32,000 nt of DNA from Phycisphaera mikurensis NBRC 102666 (lineage in GTDB: Bacteria; Planctomycetota; Phycisphaerae; Phycisphaerales; Phycisphaeraceae): positions 2,940,001-2,972,000 of the forward strand of contig NC_017080.1 of the NCBI RefSeq assembly GCF_000284115.1, given 5' to 3'. The notes beneath the pieces are model-generated. The model saw only the letters and a program-made list of their open reading frames with translations, made no database searches and had not been told where the DNA came from. The position numbers and the translations under genes were made by a program. Below, piece by piece: positions 2,942-32,000 of this stretch (position 1 is its first letter; the number at the start of each line of letters is the position of its first letter).

Positions 2942-4578
2942 GGTCGCTCTTCTCTGCGCGTGAGCAGCGCCGACAGTACGACGACCGGCAGCAGCCCGAG
3001 CCCGATGATCGCCAGCGCCGCCGAGGACGCTTCCTCGAGCCGCTCGTCGCTGGCGAGCTGGTAGACCCGGACCGCGAGGGTGTCGAAGTCGAAGGGCCGG
3101 AGCATCAGCGTCACCGGCAGCTCCTTCACGACGTCGACGAAGACCAGCAGCAGCGCCGCGAGCAGCGGCGCCCGCAGCAGCGGGAGGAGCACCACGAGCG
3201 TGAGCCGCCAGCCGCCGGCGCCCAGCGAGCGGGCCGCGTCGTCGACGCTCCTCCGCACGCGGCCCAGGCCCGACTCGATCATCGCCAGCGCGACGCCCAG
3301 GAAGCGGACCTGGTAGCCGATCACCACCGCCGCCACGCCGCCGGTGAGCAGCAGGCCCGTCGGCGTGCCGAACAGACGCACCGCCCCGCGGTGCAGGTGG
3401 AGGTCGATCCAGGCGAGCGGGCCGAGCAGGCCGACAGCGATCACCGTTCCCGGCAACGCGTAGCCGAAGCCCGCGACGCGGCGGGCGGAGCCGGTGAGGA
3501 CCGATCCGCGCAGCCGATCCCCCAGCGCCACGGTCAACGCGAGCGCCACCGCGAGGGCCGCCGCACCCGCCGCGAGCCCGAGCGTCCGCGGCGCGTGCGT
3601 CCGCAGCACCTCCCGCGACCGCTCGTCGCCTTCGGCGAGGGTCATGTGCGCGAACAGCAGCGCCGGCCCGAGGAAGCCGACCGCCACCGGCAGCGCGCAG
3701 GCGAGGAAGGCCCCGGACGCCGCGAGCGGCCCGAGCCGGAACGGGCGCAGCGGCGCCTGCCGCTGCGTGGGGGCGTGGTGCCTCGCCCGCCGCCGGGCGA
3801 GGCCCTCGGCGAGCACCAGCACCGCCACCGCGCCCAGCAGCACCGACGCCAGCTGCGCCGCCGCCGTCGGCGACTCCAGGCTCTTCCACGCGCGGTAGAC
3901 GCCGGTCGCGAAGGTGTCGACGGCGAAGTAGTCGGCTACGCCGAAGTCGGCCAGCGTCTCCATCAGCACCAGCACCAGCCCCGCCGCGATCCCCGGCCGG
4001 GCCATCGGCAACGCGACGTGGAAGAAGCTGCCCCATGGCCCGCGGCCCAGCGTGCGGCCCAGCTCCATCGCCACGCCGGATTGCCCCTGGAAGGCGGTCC
4101 GGGCCGCGAGGAACACGTACGGGCCCAGCCCGAAGCCGAGGATCACCGCGGCGCCGCCCAGCGAGCGGATCTCCGGGAACCAGCCGTCCAGCGACGCGAC
4201 CGCCGGCGTCGCCCGCAGCCACGACCGCACCGGGCCGGCGAACTGCAGGAGGTCCGTCCACGCGTAGGCCGCCAGCCACGCCGGCACCGCCAGCGGCAGC
4301 AGCAGCGCCCAGCGGAACACCGCCCGCCCCGGAAAGCGGCACATCGTCACCAGCCAGGCCGTGCCCACGCCGGTCGCCGCCGCGATCACCCCGGTCGCCG
4401 CCGCCAGCAGCGCCGTCGCCGTCGCGTACCCGGCCATCCGGGTTTGGACGAGGTGGAACCACGCGTCGTCGAAGCCCTGGAACAGGCTCGCGAGCACGCG
4501 GAGCACCGGCAGCGAGATCAACGCCGCGACGAGCAGGCACGCGATGGCCCAGCCGCTGAGGCGGGGCGACGGCCTCAA
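2938..4578 (-). CDS. ABC transporter permease, fused two-domain FbpB/AfuB-like (iron(III) type)
   Basis: In frame within track ORF 2938..5046. About 12 hydrophobic segments in two repeated MetI-like halves (..LADFGVADYF.. and ..VKELPVTLMLRPFDFDTL..). No in-frame ATG precedes the first TM helix (WAIACLLVAALISLPVL). The TTG at 4578 overlaps the SBP stop TGA (4575-4577) as TTGA, suggesting translational coupling. The start codon is inferred. Confidence 0.85.
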   Translation of the reverse strand: MRPSPRLSGWAIACLLVAALISLPVLRVLASLFQGFDDAWFHLVQTRMAGYATATALLAAATGVIAAATGVGTAWLVTMCRFPGRAVFRWALLLPLAVPAWLAAYAWTDLLQFAGPVRSWLRATPAVASLDGWFPEIRSLGGAAVILGFGLGPYVFLAARTAFQGQSGVAMELGRTLGRGPWGSFFHVALPMARPGIAAGLVLVLMETLADFGVADYFAVDTFATGVYRAWKSLESPTAAAQLASVLLGAVAVLVLAEGLARRRARHHAPTQRQAPLRPFRLGPLAASGAFLACALPVAVGFLGPALLFAHMTLAEGDERSREVLRTHAPRTLGLAAGAAALAVALALTVALGDRLRGSVLTGSARRVAGFGYALPGTVIAVGLLGPLAWIDLHLHRGAVRLFGTPTGLLLTGGVAAVVIGYQVRFLGVALAMIESGLGRVRRSVDDAARSLGAGGWRLTLVVLLPLLRAPLLAALLLVFVDVVKELPVTLMLRPFDFDTLAVRVYQLASDERLEEASSAALAIIGLGLLPVVVLSALLTRREERP

Positions 4579-5618
4579 CGCCAGCCGGCCCGGTCCATGA
4601 TCTTCACCGCCTCGCGATTGAGCGAGCCCAGCTCCGACGCGTTGAGCGTGTCCTCCTTGAAGCCGCCGAAGCCCTCGAGCACGCCGGTCAGCCCGACCCC
4701 CGGCACCACCGGATACTCGAAATTGGCCAGCGCGTACAGCCTCTGCCCCTCGTCGCTCACGAGGAACGCGATGAACGCCAGCGCGTTGTCGCGGTTGGGT
4801 GCCGAGGCGACCACCCCCGCCCCCGAGACGTTCACGTGCGCCCCGCGGCCGTCTTGGTCGGGGAAGACCAGCGTCAGCTTCTCCGCCGCCGCCCGGTCCT
4901 CCGCGTCGTCCCCCGCCAGCATCCGCGCGATGTAGTAGTGGTTCGCCACCGCGACCGATCCCTCGCCCGCGGCCGCCGCCCGCGCCTGGTCGCGGTCGCC
5001 GCCCTGGGGCGTGCGGGCCAGGTTCTCGACCACGCCCTCGCACCACGTTGCGGCTTGATCTTCCCCGGCGTTGGCGATCAGAGACGCCACCAACGACTGG
5101 TTGTAGACGTTCCCGCTCGAGCGGATCAGCAGCTCACCCCGGAGCGACGGATCGGCCAGGCCCTCGTACGTCGCCACCGCGGGAGCGCCGGGCGCCCGCA
5201 GGATCACCCGCACCCGCTTGCTCACGCCGAACCAGAGGCCGTCGGGGTGGCGGAGGTTCGCGGGGATCCGCGCCTCCAGCGCTGCGCTCTCCACCGGCTC
5301 CAAGACGCCGCGGTCGACAGCCAGCTGCAGCCGCCCCGCGTCCACCGCGATGAAGACGTCCGCCGGCGAGAGCTCCCCCTCCCGCTGGATCCGAGCGAGC
5401 AGAACGTCGGCATCGGCCTCGATCGTCTTCACGGCGATGCCGGTCTTCTTGGTAAAGGCCTCGTAGAGCGCTTCGTCGGAGTCGTAGTGTCGGGAGGTGT
5501 AGAGGTTGACGATGCCCTCCGCCGAAGCCGGCGGGCCGGCGGGCAGCACGGCCGCGGCGGCGGCGAGCAGCGGGACGAGAACGGGTGCGAGCCATCGGGC
5601 GGAGCGGGAGCGATGCAT
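4575..5618 (-). CDS. Fe(3+) ABC transporter substrate-binding protein (FbpA/AfuA/FutA-like)
   Basis: In frame within track ORF 4575..6146, from the ATG at 5618: MHRSRSARWLAPVLVPLLAAAAAVLPAGPPASAEG (signal peptide), then IVNLYTSRHYDSDEALYEAFTKKTGIAVKTIEADADVLLARIQREGELSPADVFIAVDAGRL, typical of ferric-binding periplasmic proteins. First gene of the SBP-permease-ATPase operon. Confidence 0.85.
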   Translation of the reverse strand: MHRSRSARWLAPVLVPLLAAAAAVLPAGPPASAEGIVNLYTSRHYDSDEALYEAFTKKTGIAVKTIEADADVLLARIQREGELSPADVFIAVDAGRLQLAVDRGVLEPVESAALEARIPANLRHPDGLWFGVSKRVRVILRAPGAPAVATYEGLADPSLRGELLIRSSGNVYNQSLVASLIANAGEDQAATWCEGVVENLARTPQGGDRDQARAAAAGEGSVAVANHYYIARMLAGDDAEDRAAAEKLTLVFPDQDGRGAHVNVSGAGVVASAPNRDNALAFIAFLVSDEGQRLYALANFEYPVVPGVGLTGVLEGFGGFKEDTLNASELGSLNREAVKIMDRAGWR

Positions 5619-5889: not shown

Positions 5890-6645
5890 ATGTTCCGCCC
5901 GACCCCCTTGGCCACCGCCGCGGTGGCCGCCGCCGCCGCCCTCCCTGGCGCCGCCGACACGCTGGACCTGGACCTGGTCGCCGACGACGGCAGCCGCTTC
6001 ATCGAGTACTTCAGCGGCGTCTTCGCCGAACTCGGCCAGCCCCGCCCGGACGGGTCCGGCGGCGTGGCGTCCGGCGCCGACGCCTTCTTCGACCTCTCCG
6101 CCGAGTCCGCCGCCTTCCAGGCCGACCCGTTCGGCAACGAGGCCACGGCTCACGCCGTCCCGCCTTTCGGTGGGCCCGCAACGGTCTTCGACAACGGCCG
6201 GGCCTTCTCCGCGTCCTACACGCTCGACTACGACGACAGCGGGCTCGCCGGCGGCACCGGCGTCGCCTCCGTCACCGGGCTCGCCCTGGACTTCACCCGG
6301 GACGTCGCCGGCGGGACGGACGCGACGATCTTCGCCTCGGACTACACGACCACCGTGAGCGGAGTCGTTGGGACCGCGACGTTCGTCCAAGGCGAGGCCG
6401 CCTCCGTGGCGGTGGAAGCCCAGGTCGCGCTGCAGTTTCCCGGGAGCACCCCGCTCAGCGGGACCTTCCGCCTGACCGGCGACCGCTTCGCGCTCGCCGT
6501 CGACGACAGCCTCGAGACCGGCTTCGGCAGCGCCCGCTACGTGTGGGACCTGACCGGCTCCGTGGCGAACGTGCCCGAGCCCGCCTCCGCCGCCCTGCTC
6601 GCCGCCGGCGGCCTGCTGCTGGGTGCCCGCCGCCGCCGCGCCTGA
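5890..6645 (+). CDS. PEP-CTERM sorting-domain secreted protein (hypothetical)
   Basis: 251-aa track ORF. Signal peptide MFRPTPLATAAVAAAAALPGAA. The C-terminus [24 protein letters not shown] is a canonical PEP-CTERM motif followed by a TM helix and an Arg cluster. Confidence 0.85.
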   Translation: MFRPTPLATAAVAAAAALPGAADTLDLDLVADDGSRFIEYFSGVFAELGQPRPDGSGGVASGADAFFDLSAESAAFQADPFGNEATAHAVPPFGGPATVFDNGRAFSASYTLDYDDSGLAGGTGVASVTGLALDFTRDVAGGTDATIFASDYTTTVSGVVGTATFVQGEAASVAVEAQVALQFPGSTPLSGTFRLTGDRFALAVDDSLETGFGSARYVWDLTGSVANVPEPASAALLAAGGLLLGARRRRA

Positions 6646-6679
6646 TCGCCTTCCGCCCCACCGCCCCGACCACCACGCG

Positions 6680-7582
6680 ATGAAACCCGCCCTCCCCACC
6701 GCCGCCGGCCTCGCGGCGCTCGTGCTCGCCCCCGCCGCCGCCGCCGCCCCGACCGGCTTCGGCCTCACCGGCTCCGACGCCGAAGGCTACTTCGCCGTCG
6801 TGGGCTTCAACCAGGAGGGCGGCATCCAGCCCTCGGACTTGAGCCGCGATCCGGCCAGCCCGAAGTTCTTCGACTACCCGTCGTACGCGAACCCGAGCAT
6901 CGCCGCGAACACCTACGTGTTCTCGGTCGAGCCCTACCGGTTCGGGCTGAGCTACCCCGACCCGCTGCACCCCACCGGCTCGGCCACCTTCGCGAGCATC
7001 GACCGGGTCGTGGAGGGCGTGACCGAAGACGCCGACTTCGCGGACTTCGCCATCGGCGGGTTCCGCTTCGACGGCTCCGCGGTGACCGGCGTGGGGACCG
7101 AGATCGTGGGAGCCGATGCGTTGACGCTCACGCTCGACGGCACCGACTTCGAATCGAGGAACCGCAACGCCTTCCAGGGAACGCCCGGCGACCCGGGCGG
7201 CCGCTCGAACAACAACGAGTTCGCCAACATCGTGAGCTTCACGCAGAGCGGCAGCACCGGCACCGGCCTCACCTTCGAAAAAGGCGTGCTCGCCGCCATC
7301 GACCTCGTCGTCAACGTGAACGTCAACAGCACGGCCGCCGCCGCGGGATCCCCCAGCGCCTTCATCGGCTTCGACGCCGCCGGGACGCTGACCTTCTCCG
7401 GCGATCGGTTCGCGTTCGACATCGACGGGACCGACAGCTCGCCTTTCGGTCAGAACGTCCGCGTGCTGCTCAACCGCAGCGGGACCCTCGACGCGGTCGG
7501 CGCCTTCGTGGTGCCCGAGCCGGCCTCCGCCGCCCTGCTGGCCGCGGGGACGGCGCTGCTTGCCCGCCGGCGCCGCGGCTGA
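6680..7582 (+). CDS. PEP-CTERM sorting-domain secreted protein, paralog of the upstream gene
   Basis: Within track ORF 6623..7582. The likely start is the ATG at 6680 ([24 protein letters not shown] signal peptide). C-terminus [23 protein letters not shown]. It shares a pre-tail block with the 5890 gene ([15 protein letters not shown] versus FRLTGDRFALAVDDS). Confidence 0.85.
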
Positions 7583-16834: not shown

Positions 16835-18295
16835 TTACCGGGCGGGGCGCGGCTCGATGATCTCGAAGGCGCGGAAGTCGGCCTCGAGCCCGACCACGTG
16901 CAGGTGGAAGACGAGGCGGCGGGGGGTGGGGTTGGCGGGGAGGTCCAGCAGCGTCCGGCCGTCGAGGACGACGGTCCGGCGGCCGCCGCGGCGGGAGAGG
17001 TGGAGGTGGTGCTCGGCGGTCCCGTCGAAGAAGGACGCGGCGATCGGCTCGTAGTGGCCCCAGCCGTGCAGCAGGGTCACCTCGCGCTCGCCGTCGCTGA
17101 AGGCCTGGAAGTTCGCGCCCAGCACGGACGTCTCGCCGCCGAAGTAGGCCGGCCCGTCGGGCTCGGGGGTCGTCTCGTAGTCGCTCACGTTGATGAGCAT
17201 CGACGAGGGCCACCGCTCGCTGGGGGGGCCGGTGAGGCGGACGGTGAAGCTGGCGTGGAGGTCGAAGTCGCCGAAGGGCTCGTTGCGGGTGAGGAAGGCC
17301 TGCTTGTAGAAGGCGGGCCGCTGGCTGATGAGCAGCGGGCGGTTCTCCACGATCAGGTCGTCGTGGGTGTGGAAGTCGGCGCCCCAGGGCCACTCCGCCG
17401 CCCCGTGCAGCATCGGGTTCACGACGCGGGCCGGGCCGGCGGGCTCCGCCGCGGCGGGGGGCGCGGCGGCCCCGGGGGGCGAGGCCGGGCCGCCGGACCG
17501 CAGGAACGCGGCCTGGGCCGGCCAGCGGGGGAGGCGGGCGAAGGGGAAGAAGCCCGGCCGCCGCTCCACGAGGTCGACGAGGTCGCCGGTGCGCCCGCTG
17601 GCGAGGAAGAAGCGGTACCGGTCGAGCGGGCCGGGCAGGTGGAGCTGGTTCTGGTGGTCGGTGCGCTCGGGCAGCGTCGCGAGCAGCTCGCCCGCGCGGT
17701 CGAGCTCGCCGAGCCCGGCCGCGACGCGGAAGGCCAGCCCGCGAAAGACCGGGTCGTCCGGGCAGCCCGCGGCCCGCACCGCCTCCAGCCGCCGGGCCGC
17801 CTCGCCGGGGTCGCGCCGCTCCAGGGCCCACGCGGCGTCGAGGAGCGCGCCGTTCCAGGCCTCGTCGCGGGCCATCGCGCGGCTGACGGCCAGCGCCAGG
17901 CGCGCCGGCCGGGTGCGGAGCGAGACCCCGATCAGGCCGTCGCCGAAAGCGTGCTCGCGGGTCCGTCCCTCCGCGTCCGCGAAGGCGATGCGGTCGCCGC
18001 CCTCCCGGCCCCGGAGGGGGGTGAGCTGCGGGTACCGCAGCACCGACTCGCCGTTGATGGCGACGATCACCTCCCCGGCCCGGACCCCCGCGGCCCGGGC
18101 CGCGCCGTCCGGAGCCACGGCCAGGACGTCGACCCCGGCGACGGGGCCCGCGTCGGCGTCGAGCTCCTGGAGCGTTGGCGTCAACGCGGGTTGCCCGTGG
18201 GCAACCCACGCGCACGCGCAGGCCAGCGCGACCCAACAGGACGCAGGGACGACGCCGGGGGCGCTCCGGGGTCGGCGAGCGCGGAAGAGCTTCAT
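16835..18295 (-). CDS. Secreted PDZ-domain protein with a C-terminal ConA/DUF1080-like region
   Basis: 486-aa track ORF. Signal peptide MKLFRARRPRSAPGVVPASCWVALACACAWVAHG. PDZ-like GVDVLAVAPDGAARAAGVRAGEVIVAINGESV. A helical middle region. The C-terminal beta-rich region ending RRLVFHLHVVGLEADFRAFEIIE resembles the DUF1080 tail. Its ATG (18295) overlaps the upstream stop (ATGA). Confidence 0.75.
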   Translation of the reverse strand: MKLFRARRPRSAPGVVPASCWVALACACAWVAHGQPALTPTLQELDADAGPVAGVDVLAVAPDGAARAAGVRAGEVIVAINGESVLRYPQLTPLRGREGGDRIAFADAEGRTREHAFGDGLIGVSLRTRPARLALAVSRAMARDEAWNGALLDAAWALERRDPGEAARRLEAVRAAGCPDDPVFRGLAFRVAAGLGELDRAGELLATLPERTDHQNQLHLPGPLDRYRFFLASGRTGDLVDLVERRPGFFPFARLPRWPAQAAFLRSGGPASPPGAAAPPAAAEPAGPARVVNPMLHGAAEWPWGADFHTHDDLIVENRPLLISQRPAFYKQAFLTRNEPFGDFDLHASFTVRLTGPPSERWPSSMLINVSDYETTPEPDGPAYFGGETSVLGANFQAFSDGEREVTLLHGWGHYEPIAASFFDGTAEHHLHLSRRGGRRTVVLDGRTLLDLPANPTPRRLVFHLHVVGLEADFRAFEIIEPRPAR

Positions 18296-21200
18296 GGGGA
18301 GGTTCCTCGCAGCCGGGCGACGGCGGCCGCGGGGTCCCGCAGCAGGGCGCGGACGGCTTCGCTGCCCGCGAGGACCAGCGCGGACCGCCCGCGGTCGTCG
18401 GTGGCGGCCGGGTCGGTCCCGAGCGCCAGCAGCAGCGCAACCTGCGCTGCGGACGCGTCCTCGTTGCGGCCCGGGCGGGCGCGGGAGGCGGCTTCGGCCA
18501 GCAGGGTGAGGCCCTCGCGGTCGGGCACGTCGACGCTGAAGCCGCGGGCCACCAGGCCGACGGCCAGTCCCCGGAAGCCCCGGTCCAGCGCCAGCGTCGC
18601 GGCGAAGTCGCCCAGGCGCCAGGCGCCCGCGAGCGGGCGGTCCAGCCGGGGATCGCCCGGCGGCGACATCAACCCGAAGAGGTCGAGGCGGCGGTCCCTC
18701 AGCGCCTCCAGCGCCGGCACGCCCCAGCCCCGGAAGGCGTGGTCGGGGTCGTAGCCGCTCGTGGCGAAGGGGTCCGCCCCGGCGTCGAGCACGCGGGCGA
18801 GGATCTCGGGGTCGCCGCGGTCCACCGCGCTCTCCAGCACCCCCGGCCGGGCGGCGTCCGCGCCGGCGTCGAGCAGGCGGTGGACGGTTTGGGCCTCGGC
18901 CAGGGACACCGCCGTCTCCAGCGCCGTGAACCGGCCGGCGTCGCTGAGCCGCGGGTCGGCGCCGCGGTCGAGCAGCAGGTTGGCGATGGCGTCGTCGCGG
19001 CGGCTGAGCGCCAGGGTCAGCGGGAACATCCGGTCGGCTTGGAGGCGGTCGTCCCGCACCGACGCGCCCGCGTCGAGCAGCGCCCGCACGCAGGCGAGGC
19101 GGCCGCGGCGGATGGCCAGGTGCAGCGGGGCGCAGCGGAAGGCGTCGAAGCCGTCCTCTTGGTGGATGGCCGGCGGGGCGATCCGGGCGTACGCGTCGAG
19201 GTCGCAGCCGTTAGCGCCCAGCCAGGCGATGCAGCGGGAGGCGTCCGCCAGCACCGCGGCGTGGCCGAGGGTGCCCACGGCCGCGTGCGTCGCGTCGAGG
19301 CTCGCCCCCGCTTCGTGCAGCAGCTCCAGCAGGTCGGGCCGATCCATCAGCACGGCGAGCAGCGCCGCGTTGTGGCTGAAGCGGCCGTAGGTCGCGGCGT
19401 CGGGATCGGCCCCGGCCGCCAGCAGGCGCGCGACGGTGCCGGCCCGGCCGGAGCGGACGGCGGCGAGCAGCGGGGGCCACGCGTCGGGCTCGGCGAGCGA
19501 GGGCGTCCCGGCGGGCGGGAGCTCCCCGCGGTACGCCGCCCAGGCCTCAAGCGGAACACCGAACGGAAGCGGCTTCGAAGACGCGGTCGCGCCGCCGGGG
19601 TCTTCCACGCCCATGGCCGCCAGCAGCCCGTCGCGGCGGAGCATCACCACGTCCCGCTCGGGGTCGGGCACGAACAGGTGCACCTCGTCGTGGGCGACGA
19701 AGAAGTCCGTGAGCCGCCCGGTCCACTCGGTCTGGCCGAGCACGCCCCCGCTCTCCGCGTCGACCGCCAGCAGCCGCGTGAGGAAGCGCTCGGGCGGGGG
19801 GCCTACGACGCGGGCGTCCCGCGTCGGCGGGTCCGGGTCCTCCCAGGCGTACGCCATCCAGACGAGGCCGCCGTCGCCGCGGATCCGCAGCGTCTCCAGC
19901 GGCGGGGCGTGCAGGGGCAGGTCCCGCAGCACCTCGCCCGCGCCCGAGACCTGCAACAGCCGCGTTTCGAGCACGACCCAGAAGGCGTCGCCCTCGGCCT
20001 GCACGTCGACGACCGCTTGGTCGCCGTGCGGCGTGCGGGACGCGAGCCAGGCGTCGAGCGGCTCGACGCCGTCGGTCCCGACCCACGACCAGGGTGTCTT
20101 TCGCCCCCCGCCGCCGCCCATGGCGGCCCGGCCGCCGGCGGCCTCCAGGCGGGCGCCGGAGAACCGCTCCTCCAGCCGGGCGTCGAGCAGCCGGAGGTTC
20201 TCGAGCCCGCCGTCGGGGTTCTCGACGAGCCCCAGCCGCCCGTCGCCGCTGAGGACCCAGACGCGCGTGCCGTCGAAGGCGACGCGGCGGACGTCCCCGG
20301 AGACGAGCCTGTCCTCGGGCCCGAGCCTCCAGGCCTCCTCCCCCCAGGGCAGCATCAGCTTCAGGCCGTCCCCGGCCGTCGCCAGCCAGAGCCGCCGCTC
20401 GGAGGCGGCGAGGTCGGTCCACTGCGCGTCCCCGACGCGCTCGTGCAGCGGGGCGACGCGGAGGGTGAGCGGGTCGAGCAGGCCCAGCCCCTCGGGCGGG
20501 GCGGGGGAGTCGGGCGACCGGTGGTGCGGGGCCCGGAGGCCCGCGTAGCGGCCGCGCCACGGCACGACGCGGCGGACCTGCGGGGTGTGGCCGCGCCGGT
20601 CGAGGGTCAGCTCGCGGCCGGGCGACACGTCCCAGGTGAGCTCCAGCCGGGACACCTCCGCGACCGCGTCGGCCCCCGCGACCGCCGGCTCCTCCACGTG
20701 CCGCGGGAGCCCCGGCGTCGCCGCGGGGTCGTCGCCGTACCGGGCCCGGCGCAGGCGGTCCCGCTCCTCGAAACGCGCCCGGACGTCCGGCGGGAGACCG
20801 GGAGGCATCGACGGGAACGACGACCGGGCCGGCGGGGAAGACGCCGCGGAGGACGCGGGCGGGTCGGCGACCGGCTCGGGCGAGGCGGCGGGCTCCGGCC
20901 GCAGGGTGCCGTCGGCCACCCGGGCGTCGATCCACGCCCGGAGGTGCTCGGCGGCGGCGGCGGTGAGCCGGGCCGCTTGCGGCTGCGCCTCGCCCGCCGG
21001 CGGGTCCGCCGCGAACATGGCCTCGTGTTCGGCGGACCGGCCCGCGGAGGCGAAGGCCTCGGACAGGCGGTCGAGCAGGTCGGGGTCGAAGGTGAAGCGG
21101 TGGGTGTCCAGCCGCTCCTCCTCCCAGGCGGGCTCGAAGACGGGCCACCACGCGCTCCAGACCGCGGCCGTCTCCGCGTCGCTCAGGCGGAAATCGCGGG

Positions 21201-22929
21201 AGAGGACGTCGCCGGGATCGACGGCCCGGAGTCGCCCCGGGTGCTCCGACGCCGGCGGGCCGCCGGAGAGCAGGCGGCCGAGCCCGATCAGGCCGTCCAG
21301 CGTCTCCTGCCGGTAGGCGTCGCGGGCGGCGGCGGGCATGTCGCGGGGGAGCTCGCTGCGGCCCGGGCCCAGCAGCGTGTGCTGCCGGTACGTCACCCCG
21401 CGGTGGAGCTCCGCCCGCGCCTCCAGCCCCATCAGCTTCTCGCGGAGCGTCCAGGTCAGGCCGAGGACCGCCGCCCCGTGCCGGGCGATCACGCGGTCCA
21501 CCTCGGCCTGCCGCCGCCCCAGCCCGACCCACCGCCGCCCGGGCTGAAGCGGCGGGAGCATCAGCATCGCCGCGTCGGCGAGCTCGGGGTCCTCGGGGTC
21601 GAAGAAGGAGGCGGCCTGCCAGGCGAGACGCACGGAGGGGCCGCTGTTGCTGCTGATCCGGCGGGACCGGCCGCCCGCGGCGGCGCCGGCGCCGGCCTGG
21701 AGGCTCTCCGCGGCCGGGCCGCGGGTCAGCAGCGCGACCACCGCGTCCCGCTGCGCCGGCGACACCTCGTCGGGCACCGGAGCTTTGGCGGCGGCCCAGA
21801 CCTCCTCGGCCAGCTCCGCCACGGCGGCGTCGACCTCGCCGCCGGGCACGGTGCGGGTGAAGGTCTCGGGCGCGTCGACGCCCGACCAGAGGTTCAGCGT
21901 GACGGTCGTCGGCACGAGGGCCGGATCCATCGCGATCGTGCCGCCGCCGGGGTCGGGCGCGGCGTCCGCGGACTCGGCCGCGTAGCCCCAGAGGTAGTGG
22001 TCGGCCGCGCGGACCCACGCCATCGGGTCCCGCTGCGTCAGCCCGTTGAGCGCGAGCGTCTGCTCATCGCCGGCGTCCGCAGCCCGCGTCACCCGCACCA
22101 GCCGGACGCCGGGATCCTCCCGCGCCTCGGCCTCCAGCCGCTCGGGCATCGTCGCTTCGAGGTGGTCCAGCCGGTCCGTCCCCGAGGCGTTGCGGAAGAA
22201 CAGCAGCGAGAGCACCGGCGCCCCGTCGAGCGAGGCGAGGCGCTCGTGCGCCGAGCCGATCAGGCCGCGTGTCGCCTCGAGCAGGCGGTCGAGGTCGGCG
22301 TCGGGCAGGGCCTCGGGCCGCGACAGGTCCGCCGGCCACGGCAGCTCGGTCTCGGCGACCCGGTCGGCGGTCAGGAGGTCGACGACCTCCAGCCGCAGCC
22401 GCTGCGCGTCGAGCCCGGTGTCGACGAAGGTGCCGGTCACGATGAGGTCGCAGCCGAGCCAGGCGCCCAGCTGCACCGAGGACGAGGCGTCGCCGCCTCC
22501 CAGCGTCAACCCCAGCGCCGCCTCCCCGGCCGCGGCGTTGAGCGCCTCCCGGTCGACCCACTCGAAGCGTTCCTCCGCGTCGAGCGCCGCCCGGGCGACG
22601 TCGCTGATCCGGCGGGCGGTCCCGGCCCCGACCCAGGTGTCCCGGTCGACGCGGAAGTCCATCAACGCCACCCGGGGCCGCCGGGGGTGGGGCGCCCGCT
22701 CGGGCCGGGGCACCCGCTCGGCGAGGCGGCGTTCCAGCTTCTCCGCCCGCGTCTCCGCCCGCGTCTCCGCCCGCTCGGGCGGCGCCCACCACTGCGCCAC
22801 CGGCGACACCAGCTCGGCCGCGGCCTGCCGCGCCTGCGGGCTGCGGTGGACCAGCCCGGCGGCGACGAGCAGCATGAGCCCGGCGGCGGCGAGGAGCGCG
22901 AGGTTGCGTCGGGGCGAGCGCTTGGGCAT
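18292..22929 (-). CDS. Giant (1545 aa) membrane-anchored multidomain protein: two TolB-N/CsgG-like modules, a propeller-like region and C-terminal ankyrin repeats
   Basis: Track ORF. N-terminus MPKRSPRRNLALLAAAGLMLLVAAGLV (signal anchor). Module 1 is RVALMDFRVDRD...ISDVARAALDAEERFEWVDREALNAAAGE...LGAWLGCDLIVTGTF. Module 2 is PVLSLLFFRNASGTDRLDHLEATMPERLEAEAREDPGVRLV. There are beta-rich repeats (LWLATAGDGLKL.., VWVLSGDGRLGLV.., FWVVLETRLLQV.., LVWMAYAWE). At least 6 ankyrin-like repeats are present (LLAAGADPD.., LLHEAGASLD.., APLHLAIRRGRLACVRALLDAGASV.., LLLDRGADP.., RLLDAGADA.., VLDAGADP..). Confidence 0.85.
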   Translation of the reverse strand: MPKRSPRRNLALLAAAGLMLLVAAGLVHRSPQARQAAAELVSPVAQWWAPPERAETRAETRAEKLERRLAERVPRPERAPHPRRPRVALMDFRVDRDTWVGAGTARRISDVARAALDAEERFEWVDREALNAAAGEAALGLTLGGGDASSSVQLGAWLGCDLIVTGTFVDTGLDAQRLRLEVVDLLTADRVAETELPWPADLSRPEALPDADLDRLLEATRGLIGSAHERLASLDGAPVLSLLFFRNASGTDRLDHLEATMPERLEAEAREDPGVRLVRVTRAADAGDEQTLALNGLTQRDPMAWVRAADHYLWGYAAESADAAPDPGGGTIAMDPALVPTTVTLNLWSGVDAPETFTRTVPGGEVDAAVAELAEEVWAAAKAPVPDEVSPAQRDAVVALLTRGPAAESLQAGAGAAAGGRSRRISSNSGPSVRLAWQAASFFDPEDPELADAAMLMLPPLQPGRRWVGLGRRQAEVDRVIARHGAAVLGLTWTLREKLMGLEARAELHRGVTYRQHTLLGPGRSELPRDMPAAARDAYRQETLDGLIGLGRLLSGGPPASEHPGRLRAVDPGDVLSRDFRLSDAETAAVWSAWWPVFEPAWEEERLDTHRFTFDPDLLDRLSEAFASAGRSAEHEAMFAADPPAGEAQPQAARLTAAAAEHLRAWIDARVADGTLRPEPAASPEPVADPPASSAASSPPARSSFPSMPPGLPPDVRARFEERDRLRRARYGDDPAATPGLPRHVEEPAVAGADAVAEVSRLELTWDVSPGRELTLDRRGHTPQVRRVVPWRGRYAGLRAPHHRSPDSPAPPEGLGLLDPLTLRVAPLHERVGDAQWTDLAASERRLWLATAGDGLKLMLPWGEEAWRLGPEDRLVSGDVRRVAFDGTRVWVLSGDGRLGLVENPDGGLENLRLLDARLEERFSGARLEAAGGRAAMGGGGGRKTPWSWVGTDGVEPLDAWLASRTPHGDQAVVDVQAEGDAFWVVLETRLLQVSGAGEVLRDLPLHAPPLETLRIRGDGGLVWMAYAWEDPDPPTRDARVVGPPPERFLTRLLAVDAESGGVLGQTEWTGRLTDFFVAHDEVHLFVPDPERDVVMLRRDGLLAAMGVEDPGGATASSKPLPFGVPLEAWAAYRGELPPAGTPSLAEPDAWPPLLAAVRSGRAGTVARLLAAGADPDAATYGRFSHNAALLAVLMDRPDLLELLHEAGASLDATHAAVGTLGHAAVLADASRCIAWLGANGCDLDAYARIAPPAIHQEDGFDAFRCAPLHLAIRRGRLACVRALLDAGASVRDDRLQADRMFPLTLALSRRDDAIANLLLDRGADPRLSDAGRFTALETAVSLAEAQTVHRLLDAGADAARPGVLESAVDRGDPEILARVLDAGADPFATSGYDPDHAFRGWGVPALEALRDRRLDLFGLMSPPGDPRLDRPLAGAWRLGDFAATLALDRGFRGLAVGLVARGFSVDVPDREGLTLLAEAASRARPGRNEDASAAQVALLLALGTDPAATDDRGRSALVLAGSEAVRALLRDPAAAVARLRGTSP
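22741..22776. repeat. In-frame 12-nt tandem repeat (about 3 units) encoding (AETR)n in the giant protein
   Basis: ctccgcccgcgt occurs twice, then ctccgcccgctc. On the coding strand this gives ..ERAETRAETRAEKLE.. just after the membrane anchor. Confidence 0.7.
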
Positions 22930-22986: not shown

Positions 22987-23018
22987 GACCGCGTGACCGC
23001 GTGACCGCGTGACCGCGC
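22987..23018. repeat. Octanucleotide microsatellite (GACCGCGT)x3 plus GACCGCGC
   Basis: gaccgcgt gaccgcgt gaccgcgt gaccgcgc, read directly. It lies in the 97-nt spacer between the CsgG-like gene stop (23029-23031) and the giant gene ATG (22929). Confidence 0.9.
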
Positions 23019-27567: not shown

Positions 27568-29268
27568 TCAGCTGCCGCGCCGCCGGCGGCGCGGCAGCAC
27601 GAGCAGCCCGCCGGCGGCCGCGAGAACGGCGCTGGAGGGCTCGGGGACGACGGCGGACATCACCTCGAAGCTGGCGGTGAGGCCGACGTACCCGTCGCCC
27701 CAGCCCTCGAGCCCGGCCATGCCGTAGCGGGCGAGGTACTCGGTGTCGACGCCCTCGGTGAACCCGTTGAGCAGGGCCGCACCCACGCCGCGCGCGTAGA
27801 TCGGCACCAGCTGGTTGGTGTGCTGGGTGGACTGCATGAGCATCTCGGGCTTGTTGCCGATGCCGGCGGTCTCGATGAGGTCGAAGGCCTCGGTGTCGCC
27901 GTCGGGGCCCCAGAGCATGCCCGCCTCGTGGTCGGCGAGCACCATCACCAGCGTCTCGTCGAAGTTGGGATCGTTGGCGGCCACCCAATCCAGCACGGCG
28001 TCCACGGAGTCGTTGAAGTCGACCTGCTCCTCGATCAGCCGCGTCGTGTTGTGCCCGTGGCCCGCCCAGTCCACCTGCGCGCCCTCGACCATCAGGTACA
28101 TCCCTTCCCGGTCCTGCTGGGCATCGAGCTGGTGGATCGCCGCTTTGGTCAGCGTCGCCAGCGTCGGCGTCGCCGCGTTGAAGGGGTCGCCCGCGGAGTC
28201 GTCGCCGGGGTTCACCGGCGCGGCCTGCCGCTCGGCCTTCTGCGCTTCGGTGAGCGGGAAGAACGGCGTGAAGGGCTCGTTGTCGACGACGCCGTTGCCG
28301 TCCCAGTCGTCCGTGATCGGGCGGAGGTACTGCAGCGAGTTCCGCGACTGCGCCAGGCCCAGCAGCCGGCCCTGCGTCGCGGCGGCGGGGTCGGCGGCGA
28401 GGGCCTCGAAGTCGGCCCGGTCCTCCACGAGGTCCCAGCCGCCGGCGTGGGTGCCGGCCTTGAGCTCCACATAGGTGGCGGTGCCGCCGATGTTGCGGGC
28501 GGCGGTGCTGGTCGGGTCGTTCACGTCCAGCGGCGTGAAGTTGCCGGCGTCGTCGTACTCCGGGTGGCCGGGCGTGAAGATCAGGTCCAGCGTGCCCTCG
28601 TCGAGCATCTGGTTGGCGATCTCCTGCGTGTTGCCGCGGCTCACGTTGTGGGCCCCGCCCATCGTGGCCGGCGTGGCGTGGCTGAAGTAGACGCTGCTCA
28701 CCACGCCGGTGGCGCGGTTGTTGGCGCGGGCCAGCTCCGCGATCGTCTGCCCGGTGAGCGGCGCGTCGTCGTTGGTCCAGTTGATGCCGCTGTTGAAGGT
28801 CCGCACGCCCGCGGCGATGGCCGTGCCCGCCGCGGCCGAGTCGGTGTACGTGCTCTTGAGGAAGTTGTAGCCCGCGAAGGGGCCGCCGGAGTTGCTGGCC
28901 GCTCCGGGGGCGGTCGGGCTGAGCGGGTCGGCAAAGGGCACCCGCGCGTTGTCCACCGGCTGGGCGCTCGTGTCCCACGCGGCGGCCGGGTCGTAGACCA
29001 GCGTGGGGTCCTGCCCGGCGCCGTCGGGCTCACGGTTGAAGGTGAGCGGGTGCGTCGAGGCACCCACCTTGGTCCAGCCGGCCTGCTCGTAGGGCAGCCG
29101 GCCCAGGTCGCCGTGCTGGTACATCGAGGCCGCGTTGAACTGGTTGAAGCCCGCGCCGTCGCTGATCAGCACGAACAGGTTCTTCGCCTCCTGCGCCGCG
29201 GCGGCGCTCCCGCCGGCCACGCCCACGCCCACCAGGAACACACGAAGCAGAGTCGAGGTCCGAATCAT
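27568..29268 (-). CDS. Alkaline phosphatase (PhoA family) carrying a PEP-CTERM sorting tail
   Basis: Track ORF 27568..29310. The preferred start is the ATG at 29268 (MIRTSTLLRVFLVGVGVAGGSAAAAQE signal peptide; AAGGAAAGG upstream). Active-site block YTDSAAAGTAIAAG (the D-S-A-A motif). Metal-binding regions EGAQVDWAGHGHN and LVMVLADHE. C-terminus VPEPSSAVLAAAGGLLVLPRRRRRGS. Confidence 0.85.
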   Translation of the reverse strand: MIRTSTLLRVFLVGVGVAGGSAAAAQEAKNLFVLISDGAGFNQFNAASMYQHGDLGRLPYEQAGWTKVGASTHPLTFNREPDGAGQDPTLVYDPAAAWDTSAQPVDNARVPFADPLSPTAPGAASNSGGPFAGYNFLKSTYTDSAAAGTAIAAGVRTFNSGINWTNDDAPLTGQTIAELARANNRATGVVSSVYFSHATPATMGGAHNVSRGNTQEIANQMLDEGTLDLIFTPGHPEYDDAGNFTPLDVNDPTSTAARNIGGTATYVELKAGTHAGGWDLVEDRADFEALAADPAAATQGRLLGLAQSRNSLQYLRPITDDWDGNGVVDNEPFTPFFPLTEAQKAERQAAPVNPGDDSAGDPFNAATPTLATLTKAAIHQLDAQQDREGMYLMVEGAQVDWAGHGHNTTRLIEEQVDFNDSVDAVLDWVAANDPNFDETLVMVLADHEAGMLWGPDGDTEAFDLIETAGIGNKPEMLMQSTQHTNQLVPIYARGVGAALLNGFTEGVDTEYLARYGMAGLEGWGDGYVGLTASFEVMSAVVPEPSSAVLAAAGGLLVLPRRRRRGS

Positions 29269-29477
29269 CGTCGCTACACCTTTCCTTGGAAACTCGCCGG
29301 CCGCGGGCAACGCCCACGACGAAACCGGCGACGGAAAGCTCCCGGCTCCGGGTCACCGCCGCGCGTCGATCGCGTTGCTTTCCGGTGAGCGGTTGCGTGC
29401 CGGTGCATCTCCCCCACGCGTCCCCGCGGGCGGAACCGGCGGGCGGCCTCACGCGGCGACGCCCGCCCCGGGCCACG

Positions 29478-29698: not shown

Positions 29699-31228
<1,530 letters not shown>

Positions 31229-31314
31229 GGGCAGAGCCTAAGAACCCGCCGCTCCTCCAGCCGCGGGCTCCCGAATCCGGCACGACCGGGGGCCGGGTGC
31301 CACGCGGGTGCGCG

Positions 31315-31470
31315 CTAGCGGTGATCCCCGAGTTTCCTCAGGGCTCGCCGGCAGAGCCCGTGGAGCTGCCGGACGGCGAGATCGAGCTCGGTCGACAGCT
31401 CGAGCATCGATTTGCCCCCGAGGAAGCGGCCCACGAGGATCTTCCGCTCCAGCTCGGTCAGTCTTTCCAT
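31315..31470 (-). CDS. Small sigma-70 region-4-like HTH protein (51 aa; may extend to 31665)
   Basis: MERLTELERKILVGRFLGGKSMLELSTELDLAVRQLHGLCRRALRKLGDHR resembles sigma-70 region 4 / LuxR-type HTH. The 116-aa track ORF adds a Pro/Ala/Arg-rich N-terminus that contains hairpin copy F, so I prefer the internal ATG at 31470. The start is unresolved. Confidence 0.5.
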   Translation of the reverse strand: MERLTELERKILVGRFLGGKSMLELSTELDLAVRQLHGLCRRALRKLGDHR

Positions 31471-31568
31471 GACGGGGTCCGGGTGCTCTGGCGTGATGGA
31501 TGCGGGACAAGGAGAGGAGGATCCAACGCCAGCCGGTGCGTTGGGCCGCGTCGGCGGGCCGACGGGAT

Positions 31569-31614
31569 TCGCGGATCGGCGGCGTTTCGGGCCGTTCCGC
31601 CCAGCGGTCCGCGG
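31569..31614. repeat. 46-nt hairpin element, copy F (degenerate left arm)
   Basis: TCGCGGATCG gcggcgtttcgggccgttccgcccag CGGTCCGCGG. Same 46-nt length and 26-nt core. The two left-arm changes are C-to-T, which still pair as G.U on a plus-strand RNA. The core shares GCGTTTCGGGCC with copy C and CCGTTCC(C)GCC with copies B and E. Confidence 0.7.
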
Positions 31615-31734
31615 CGGTGTGGCGGCCGGCTCGAGAGCAGCGGGCCGCTCGTTCGCGGGAGACACGGAGGCACGAGAGGATACCTCGAAAGAGGCGGCCG
31701 GAGCGGGGCGGAGCGGCAGGTCGCCCGTGGCCGC

Positions 31735-32000
31735 GAGAGCGGAGCGGCGACGCCGCTCTGTCTGCTTGTGCGCGAGGGAGCTGGATCGCGGCTCGGACAG
31801 CGTGGCGTCGCCACGCAGCTACCGCGGCCAGGCTGGCTTCGAGAGCTGAGCGGCGACGCCGCTCTGTCTGCTTGTGCGCGAAGGAGCTGGATCGCGACTC
31901 GGACAGCGTGGCGTCGCCACGCAGCTAGCGCGGCCAGGCTGGCGGCGAGAGCGGAGCGGCGACGCCGCTCTGTCTGCTTGTGCGCGAAGAAGCTGGATCG
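31735..32000. repeat. Tandem array of a structured 106-nt unit (2.5 units visible; continues past the right edge)
   Basis: Unit starts are at 31735, 31841 and 31947, each beginning gagagc. U1 and U2 match at 100 of 106 positions. A degenerate partial unit lies at about 31700-31734. Each unit holds a 17-bp imperfect stem GGCGACGCCGCTCTGTC / GACAGCGTGGCGTCGCC around a 33-nt loop with an inner CGCGA/TCGCG stem. Confidence 0.9.

Follow-up and report, generated by a model that had tools for sequence, protein, structure and literature searches.

A tandem array of 106-bp palindromic repeats between mnmG and zwf in Phycisphaera mikurensis

A tandem array of 106-bp units lies at the right edge of a 32,000-nucleotide stretch of DNA from Phycisphaera mikurensis NBRC 102666 (contig NC_017080.1, positions 2,940,001 to 2,972,000; the whole stretch is referred to here as the window), in the gap between mnmG and a small helix-turn-helix (HTH) open reading frame (ORF) that is followed by zwf. 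With high confidence, the array can be classed by its structure as a non-coding, apparently single-locus, lineage-specific palindromic minisatellite. It is thus of a known general kind, the intergenic palindromic tandem repeat, and no evidence for a new class of RNA was found. The explanation favoured here, to which a probability of roughly 45% is given, is that of an amplified intergenic hairpin element: by analogy with repeats inside enterobacterial operons, it would be transcribed in the sense direction together with mnmG, and its hairpins would act as an exonuclease barrier or a partial stop between mnmG and the HTH–zwf genes.

In the window, Tandem Repeats Finder (TRF) located the period-106 array at positions 31728–32000 (2.6 copies, 94% matches, score 490; no strand assigned), and a 30-mer derived from the unit was found three times, at an exact spacing of 106 nt, against 0.00 occurrences expected from shuffled sequence. 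The rest of the array was recovered from the source contig (GCA_014207395.1, JACHEL010000002.1; L001), which was reached via the adjoining zwf protein and on which window position x equals 41229 minus the L001 position. There the complete array occupies L001 8799–9495, or 31734–32430 in virtual window coordinates carried past the edge, and comprises 6.5 copies over ~700 bp (93% matches, score 1220, TRF), a copy number taken from one assembly. Six full units of 106, 106, 106, 108, 106, and 106 nt are followed by a partial unit of ~58 nt. U1 lies at 31735–31840 and U2, which carries a T variant at unit position 7 and a GG variant at positions 104–105, at 31841–31946; U3 starts at 31947, is cut by the window edge at 32000, and continues to virtual position 32052. 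Beyond the window follow U4 (108 nt, virtual 32053–32160), U5 (virtual 32161–32266), U6 (virtual 32267–32372), and the partial unit U7 (virtual 32373 to ~32430). The sequence is degenerate at both array edges, and at the HTH-proximal edge, when the flank was aligned locally with the unit, a degenerate partial unit was identified at 31700–31734, with the P1-like sequence GGCAGGTCGCC and a truncated end. A preliminary description of the window, made from its letters alone, had placed the unit starts at 31735, 31841, and 31947 and the degenerate partial unit at about 31700–31734, had listed six differences between U1 and U2 and two between U3 and U2, and had stated that the array continues past the edge; all of this was borne out by the sequence, the unit table, and the rightward extension.

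Mean column identity across the 106-nt period is 96%, and the units differ at 3–10 positions per 106. Two independent short-read assemblies stop at the first unit, as would be expected of a true repeat; the assembled sequences that end within this unit are L002 (1–24), L012 (1–24), and the Logan SRR29904083 contig. L002 and L001 differ by one base at the array edge (GCGTGAGCGG versus GCGAGAGCGG), probably a contig-tip artefact.

Each unit is built around two palindromes of 17 nt, both perfect and of the form 8+1+8. P1, GAGCGGCG-A-CGCCGCTC, takes up unit positions 8–24 (31742–31758 in U1), recurs at 31848–31864 and 31954–31970, and is present in 7 copies across the whole array. P2, GCGTGGCG-T-CGCCACGC, takes up unit positions 66–82 (31800–31816 in U1, recurring at 31906–31922) and has 5 perfect copies, the copy in U4 being broken by an AC>CT change. 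Both share the core GGCG(A/T)CGCC. They are set apart by two partly symmetric spacers, and the symmetry extends to the unit as a whole, which aligns along its entire length with its own reverse complement. Two dyad axes are found per period, at unit positions ~45.5 and 98 and thus 53 nt apart, with an 11-nt palindrome, GCCAGGCTGGC (31827–31837, recurring at 31933–31943), centred on the second. Therefore, the array is a chain of alternately inverted half-units of ~53 bp, in which the centres of the palindromes are alternately 58 and 48 nt apart. Palindromes of this motif class are common in the 75% G+C genome of P. mikurensis. Elsewhere in the window, perfect palindromes with arms of at least 8 nt are met roughly every 2 kb, and two of them in every 106 nt are therefore non-random.

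This symmetry changes how the unit is read. It had been described as a 17-bp stem (one T.C mismatch, one G.U pair), a 33-nt loop holding an inner CGCGA/TCGCG stem, and a 39-nt linker. Each of these parts is present as described, but the division into stem, loop, and linker is arbitrary, as each arm is itself a perfect 17-nt palindrome that pairs across the "linker" as stably as across the "loop." The 17-bp stem amounts to the resemblance between P1 and P2 with four further pairs added (TGTC/GACA), and its T.C and G.U positions are those at which the P1 and P2 half-sites differ. Predicted pairing across the linker gave –51.0 kcal/mol on the plus strand and –49.9 kcal/mol on the minus strand, compared with –47.6 to –51.9 and –42.9 to –47.6 kcal/mol, respectively, across the loop, a similarity that follows from the presence of two dyad axes per period. 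The plus-strand fold is slightly better than the minus-strand fold, owing to one G.U pair. P1 or P2 alone forms a 7-bp hairpin of –12.6 to –15.1 kcal/mol, and the whole array is predicted to fold by nesting arms from different units (z = –9.7). Judged from the sequence, the register of the hairpin and its strand are ambiguous.

Comparison of the six full units revealed 13 variable columns, corresponding to 11 events, none of which falls in the 34 main-stem positions (hypergeometric P = 0.005 by columns and 0.016 by events). As far as the main stem is concerned, each of the six full units bears out the claim that the differences never fall in a stem; the inner stem is bulged by a 1-nt insertion (G) in U4. 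The AC>CT change of U4 lies directly beside the main stem. When the pairs of the previously drawn structure were followed across the copies, 25 of 27 never varied and compensatory changes were found in none, so that the suggested check for covariation across copies came back negative. The copies give evidence of palindrome invariance and not covariation evidence for an RNA structure. This invariance could come from selection on the hairpin, from selection on a protein site, or from homogenisation together with hairpin-templated correction, an established process in quasi-palindromes.

The distribution of the variants also indicates how the array grew. Position 7 alternates between G and T through U1–U7, and positions 104–105 are likewise paired; the array therefore grew through the copying of 212-bp dimers. 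Several of the unit differences are therefore shared by descent and represent few independent events. As the units differ at 3–10 positions per 106, the amplification was not very recent.

To place the locus among its relatives, the mnmG region was compared in four of them (L005, L006, L007, and L008), in which MnmG is 79–88% identical to that of P. mikurensis. In L005, L007, and L008, mnmG is directly followed by zwf, with gaps of 177, 73, and 168 nt, respectively. The unit was absent from all four relatives (blastn, word size 7), as was the HTH ORF from the mnmG–zwf locus. Each relative nevertheless has a strong inverted repeat of its own, unrelated in sequence, at or over the mnmG stop codon. 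In L005, the arms are 27 nt long, 100% complementary, include the TAG, and are each palindromic (6835–6861 and 6960–6986, z = –8.2). The arms in L008 are 38 nt of (AGGCACAG)n octamers (2730–2767 and 2814–2851, z = –7.9); octamers of the same kind, (AGGCACAG)n, make up the arms in L006 (6147–6174 and 6299–6324), and L007 has a hairpin followed by a U-tract, a terminator (3240–3291). Because a strong hairpin is kept at the same place in every relative, the position is suggested to be functionally used. Taken together, the array, the leader that follows it, and the HTH gene appear to be a lineage-specific insertion or expansion at a site whose conserved feature is a hairpin element.

At this site in L006, a transposase of the IS110 family (DEDD_Tnp_IS110/Transposase_20, 6568–7536) directly follows the palindromic element 3′ of mnmG and occupies the place where zwf would be expected. 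IS110-family elements target palindromic repeats.

Further copies were sought in P. mikurensis and well beyond it. Outside the array, ~47 kb of P. mikurensis sequence (the window, L001, and L013) yielded neither the unit nor P1/P2 again; a single match with one mismatch was seen, against 0.65 expected by chance. A sample of this size excludes a family of several hundred copies, of which ~4–5 would be expected in it, and does not exclude one of ~100. The exact 21-mer core had one match each in the genome and metagenome contig collections, both chance matches with unrelated flanks; the genome contig scan did not return the source genome, so that both scans cover copies outside P. mikurensis only. 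The extended palindromes had no match in viral contigs, the whole 1.2-kb mnmG–zwf insert had none in plasmids and phages (blastn), and the translations of the array, searched for spurious ORFs on other copies, found nothing in a collection of 5.8 billion proteins even at E ≤ 1. A search of the genome and relatives for the unit had been proposed in the preliminary description, which had also named as evidence against its reading an array that ends just beyond the window, has no copies elsewhere in the genome, and is not transcribed. The first two were largely what was found: the array stops at virtual position ~32430, and neither the ~47 kb nor the four relatives hold another copy. No relevant literature was found on the assembly accession or on P. 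mikurensis repeats.

Several known categories could be set aside. The array is not a protein repeat because its period is 106, stop codons lie within the units, no gene is called, and no protein matches; this agrees with the preliminary description, as does the rejection of a clustered regularly interspaced short palindromic repeat (CRISPR) array, since the whole 106-nt period is conserved and unique spacers are absent. Assignment to any Rfam family was rejected, as the best match reached 25.9 bits (E = 0.14) where the gathering score is 85, and all matches were to generic hairpin (microRNA) models. No tRNA or transfer-messenger RNA was detected with ARAGORN. A σ70-type promoter scan of L001 8600–10100 gave 0 sites, planctomycete promoter motifs lying outside the scope of that scan. 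An intrinsic (Rho-independent) terminator was discounted because the GC-rich hairpins lack a U-tract. A replication origin beside gidA/mnmG was considered as well; the array has neither an AT-rich region nor DnaA-box-like sequence, and there is no clear skew switch. Among the called genes of L001, L013, and the window, there was no transposase, no repetitive extragenic palindrome (REP)-associated tyrosine transposase (RAYT; Y1 transposase, PF01797), and no partition gene.

At the locus itself, mnmG (L001 6964–8796), the array, the HTH ORF, and zwf share one direction, that of the window's minus strand. The mnmG product is 100% identical to the protein listed under P. mikurensis at NCBI. The array fills the gap from mnmG to the HTH–zwf genes and ends 3 nt from the mnmG stop codon. 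On its other flank follow, in order, a unique leader of 263 nt (non-repetitive at 31471–31699, minus strand, with no promoter-like or terminator-like sites detected), the 51-amino acid HTH ORF (31315–31470, minus strand), and zwf, encoding glucose-6-phosphate dehydrogenase (29699–31228, minus strand), the gene that directly follows mnmG in relatives. The ORF is a borderline stand-alone σ70 region 4 HTH, scoring 24.5 bits on Pfam Sigma70_r4 (cutoff, 24.1). A single relative was found in a set of 1.8 billion representative proteins, the 52-amino acid P0122 (65% identity), whose gene stands at a different locus, between a T2SS-F gene and a GFO/IDH/MocA gene. The 106-nt array is absent from the P0122 locus; a conserved partnership of array and HTH protein is therefore unsupported, and the idea that the two form a conserved module was rejected. 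That the ORF is a fragment of a σ factor is also unsupported, its sole relative being another stand-alone protein of 52 amino acids. ORFs of 51 amino acids upstream of mnmG in relatives were considered as a relocated HTH gene and rejected, as they encode unrelated small membrane peptides. The HTH ORF is treated here as genomic context of the array.

The P0122 locus has repeats of its own. Three tandem copies of a 15–17-nt motif, TGACACTTTTCCCGCTT, lie ~70–120 nt upstream of the P0122 gene (L009 4881–4929), and an inverted copy lies downstream of it (5374–5390); these repeats could be an operator or promoter array. Directly before the zwf start, ~17 nt are conserved in P. mikurensis, L005, L007, and L008 as TTCTTA(S)(S)CTCTGCCC. 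In P. mikurensis, this pyrimidine-rich stretch, which has no Shine-Dalgarno-like sequence, is found at window positions 31229–31250 (L001 9981–10000).

Under the favoured explanation, a single strong hairpin at the mnmG stop, like those of the relatives, would have been amplified in P. mikurensis by slippage or unequal recombination, most recently in 212-bp dimers, and alongside the arrival of the 263-nt leader and the small HTH gene. The array would be transcribed in the sense direction, either as the 3′ tail of mnmG or as the intercistronic part of an mnmG–HTH–zwf transcript, and its GC-rich hairpins would block 3′-to-5′ exonucleases, partly stop transcription, or both. Expression of mnmG would in this way be uncoupled from that of the downstream genes, as has been described for REPs and bacterial interspersed mosaic elements (BIMEs) within enterobacterial operons. 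The perfect palindromes would be kept by selection on the hairpin or by hairpin-templated correction, and slippage probably produced the many copies as a side effect. Support for such a barrier or partial stop comes from the relatives, which keep some hairpin at exactly the same site.

A number of observations weigh against it. The advantage of one unit's fold over shuffled sequence is marginal (z = –1.8 on the plus strand and –1.4 on the minus strand) in DNA of 72–75% G+C. The hairpin predicted to form when the final codons of mnmG pair with the terminal partial unit, considered as a means of sequestering the mnmG stop codon, had z = –0.6, no better than chance, and sequestration was accordingly dropped. 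No U-tract terminator was found in or around the array on either strand, the hairpins being followed by GC-rich sequence. The invariance of the stems rests on ~11 events without compensatory changes, and homogenisation could also yield it. One hairpin would be enough for a barrier, which leaves the 6.5 copies unexplained by that role, and the perfect palindromes fit a protein-binding role equally well.

The first of the competing explanations is a neutral or selfish satellite without function, in which a palindromic segment grew by slippage or unequal crossing-over and owes its invariance to recency, gene conversion, and quasi-palindrome correction rather than to selection. Such a satellite is consistent with the absence of the array from all sampled relatives, the degeneracy of both its edges, the lack of promoter, terminator, and Rfam signals, the few independent events implied by dimer amplification, and the lack of compensatory changes in any pair. 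It accounts less well for an amplification that was not very recent (3–10 differences per 106) and yet left the 34 stem positions free of all 13 variable columns, or for a strong hairpin at the same place in every relative, and it is regarded as somewhat unlikely. Alternatively, the array may act at the DNA level as an operator or titration array upstream of HTH–zwf, or as a chromosome-structuring site, offering 13 dyad-symmetric 17-bp candidate sites to a dimeric protein. A protein-binding or titration array had been suggested in the preliminary description, and the finding that every unit has two perfect 17-mers with dyad symmetry gives that suggestion a more concrete form. P1 and P2 have the classic form of a dimer operator (perfect 8+1+8, common half-site GNGYGGCG), they are the invariant part of the unit, and an HTH gene lies 263 nt downstream. 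The adjacent 51-amino acid HTH protein would be one candidate binder; gyrase or HU would be others by analogy with BIME-2/REP325, as BIMEs are reported to bind several proteins and to be gyrase cleavage sites (PMC2817692) and REP325 acts with HU (PMC4550694). However, the P0122 locus lacks such palindromes and has three unrelated 15–17-nt direct repeats upstream instead, the 51-amino acid region 4 domain appears to have no evident dimerisation module, P2 is broken in U4, and there are no similar sites elsewhere in the ~47 kb. Both the protein-binding array and the named binders are thus considered improbable.

Tandem small-RNA genes, which had been put forward in the preliminary description, would either have one promoter per unit, as in NsiR1, or be processed from a long transcript, as are the nucleoid-associated RNAs (naRNAs). 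Arrays of this sort are known (NsiR1, PMC4030482; REP325 naRNAs, PMC4550694), and here each unit can form a stable hairpin (~–48 to –58 kcal/mol) that folds slightly better on the plus strand. Yet no promoter-like or U-tract terminator sites lie in or around the array, the best Rfam match remains far below its gathering score, the register and strand of the hairpin are ambiguous, covariation is absent, and the array is missing even from the closest relatives, unlike NsiR1 arrays, which are present across the heterocystous cyanobacteria (PMC4030482); such genes are very unlikely. The MITE-like satellite of the same description (MITE, miniature inverted-repeat transposable element) fared no better. 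It belongs with a wider possibility, that of a dispersed mobile palindromic family, be it a cluster of REP/BIMEs or of REP-derived inverted repeats (REPINs) mobilised by a RAYT, or a MITE array. The geometry is that of BIMEs (PMC2817692), with palindromes that are evenly spaced, alternate in orientation, and are joined by constant linkers, P2 contains GTGG, and the same intergenic site in relatives holds other palindromic elements and an IS110-family transposase. Against this, the ~47 kb contain no further copy of the unit or of P1/P2, exact-core scans of the genome, metagenome, and viral collections gave chance matches or none, plasmids and phages gave none, no Y1 transposase is among the nearby genes, and spurious ORFs called on other copies are missing from the protein database. 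Membership of a mobile family is accordingly the least probable of these readings, with hardly any likelihood attached to it. A further suggestion, drawn by analogy and decidedly improbable, is an independently evolved, RAYT-free double-palindrome array like BIME-2/REP325, confined to one locus and acting at the level of DNA or the nucleoid. If this were true, the array would present 13 phased dyad sites to the orphan 51-amino acid σ region 4-like protein, gyrase, or HU, or would alternatively give rise to hairpin RNAs that work with nucleoid proteins and control local topology or zwf expression.

Other repeats were also seen in the window. A perfect palindrome of 28 nt, GCTGCCGCGCCGCCGGCGGCGCGGCAGC (27571–27598), straddles the 3′ end of an alkaline phosphatase ORF (27568–29310, minus strand), whose product bears a PEP-CTERM-like C terminus (VPEPSS…RRRRR). 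Two short tandem repeats, 12 nt × 2.9 at 22740–22774 and 8 nt × 3.9 at 22987–23017, both with 100% matches, are located at the 5′ end of a gene for a 1545-amino acid ankyrin-repeat protein (18292–22929, minus strand) and a short way upstream of it.

The array was compared with several known systems. The mycobacterial interspersed repetitive units (MIRUs), a type of variable number tandem repeat (VNTR), occur at dozens of loci and often contain small ORFs that overlap the flanking stop and start codons. Like the array, they are tandem direct repeats of ~40–100 bp between co-directional operon genes in a high-G+C genome, presumably of variable copy number. In P. mikurensis, however, the repeat occupies one locus in the sampled sequence, its period is not a multiple of 3, it has strong internal palindromes, stops lie within the units, and no gene is called, and a MIRU-type VNTR was rejected. 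The F plasmid sopC site comprises 12 repeats of 43 bp, SopB binding the inverted repeat in each, and is likewise a set of tandem direct repeats with dyad-symmetric sites beside the gene for an HTH protein. The P. mikurensis array differs in being chromosomal, in having no partition genes nearby, and in carrying two sites per much longer unit, and its neighbouring HTH protein, a 51-amino acid σ region 4-like domain, is not linked to such repeats in a conserved way. With NsiR1, the array has in common a tandem direct repeat of a structured ~60–100-nt unit adjoining a gene. In NsiR1 there is one promoter per copy, and all heterocystous cyanobacteria keep the array near hetF (PMC4030482), whereas no promoter or terminator signal was detected here and the array is absent from the four relatives, so that the conservation across related genomes that marks NsiR1 is not seen.

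The closest resemblance is to REPs and BIMEs, which are defined as extragenic GC-rich palindromes with >100 dispersed copies per genome, headed by GT(A/G)G and having a cognate RAYT flanked by REPs (PMC2817692); these features were used here as the measure of membership. The array is extragenic, P1 and P2 are GC-rich palindromes able to form stem-loops, and they are regularly spaced and alternately oriented with constant linkers. There is no separate GT(A/G)G head, as the GTGG of P2 lies inside the palindrome (GCGTGGCG) and P1 has GCGG in its place. Membership therefore fails or is unproven on abundance and dispersal, on the head, and on the cognate RAYT. The array is of modest importance as a BIME-like alternating-palindrome architecture at a single planctomycete locus, apparently without a dispersed family. 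It is also a likely VNTR marker and visibly breaks short-read assemblies. The recurrence of unrelated hairpins exactly at the mnmG stop in several Phycisphaerae points either to a hotspot for such elements or to a requirement, conserved among these bacteria, for a hairpin of RNA or DNA between mnmG and zwf.

Among individual REP/BIME loci, the array most resembles Escherichia coli REP325, a BIME-2 between the co-directional genes yjdM and yjdN that is apparently transcribed under the control of the upstream gene's promoter (PMC4550694). Both consist of about six highly similar tandem repeats with palindromes effectively in alternating orientation, both lie between two co-directional genes and directly 3′ of the upstream one, and in both either strand could give rise to hairpins or cruciforms. 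Hundreds of dispersed REPs with the GT(A/G)G head make up the family of REP325, which also has a cognate RAYT, whereas the P. mikurensis sample contains neither a dispersed copy nor a RAYT. The unit measures 106 bp, compared with 77 bp plus a spacer in REP325. Its 17-mer palindromes are both perfect and uninterrupted, and its host belongs to the planctomycetes, not the proteobacteria. The comparison bears on whether a RAYT is required in every case for BIME-like arrays or whether local amplification can suffice for their growth.

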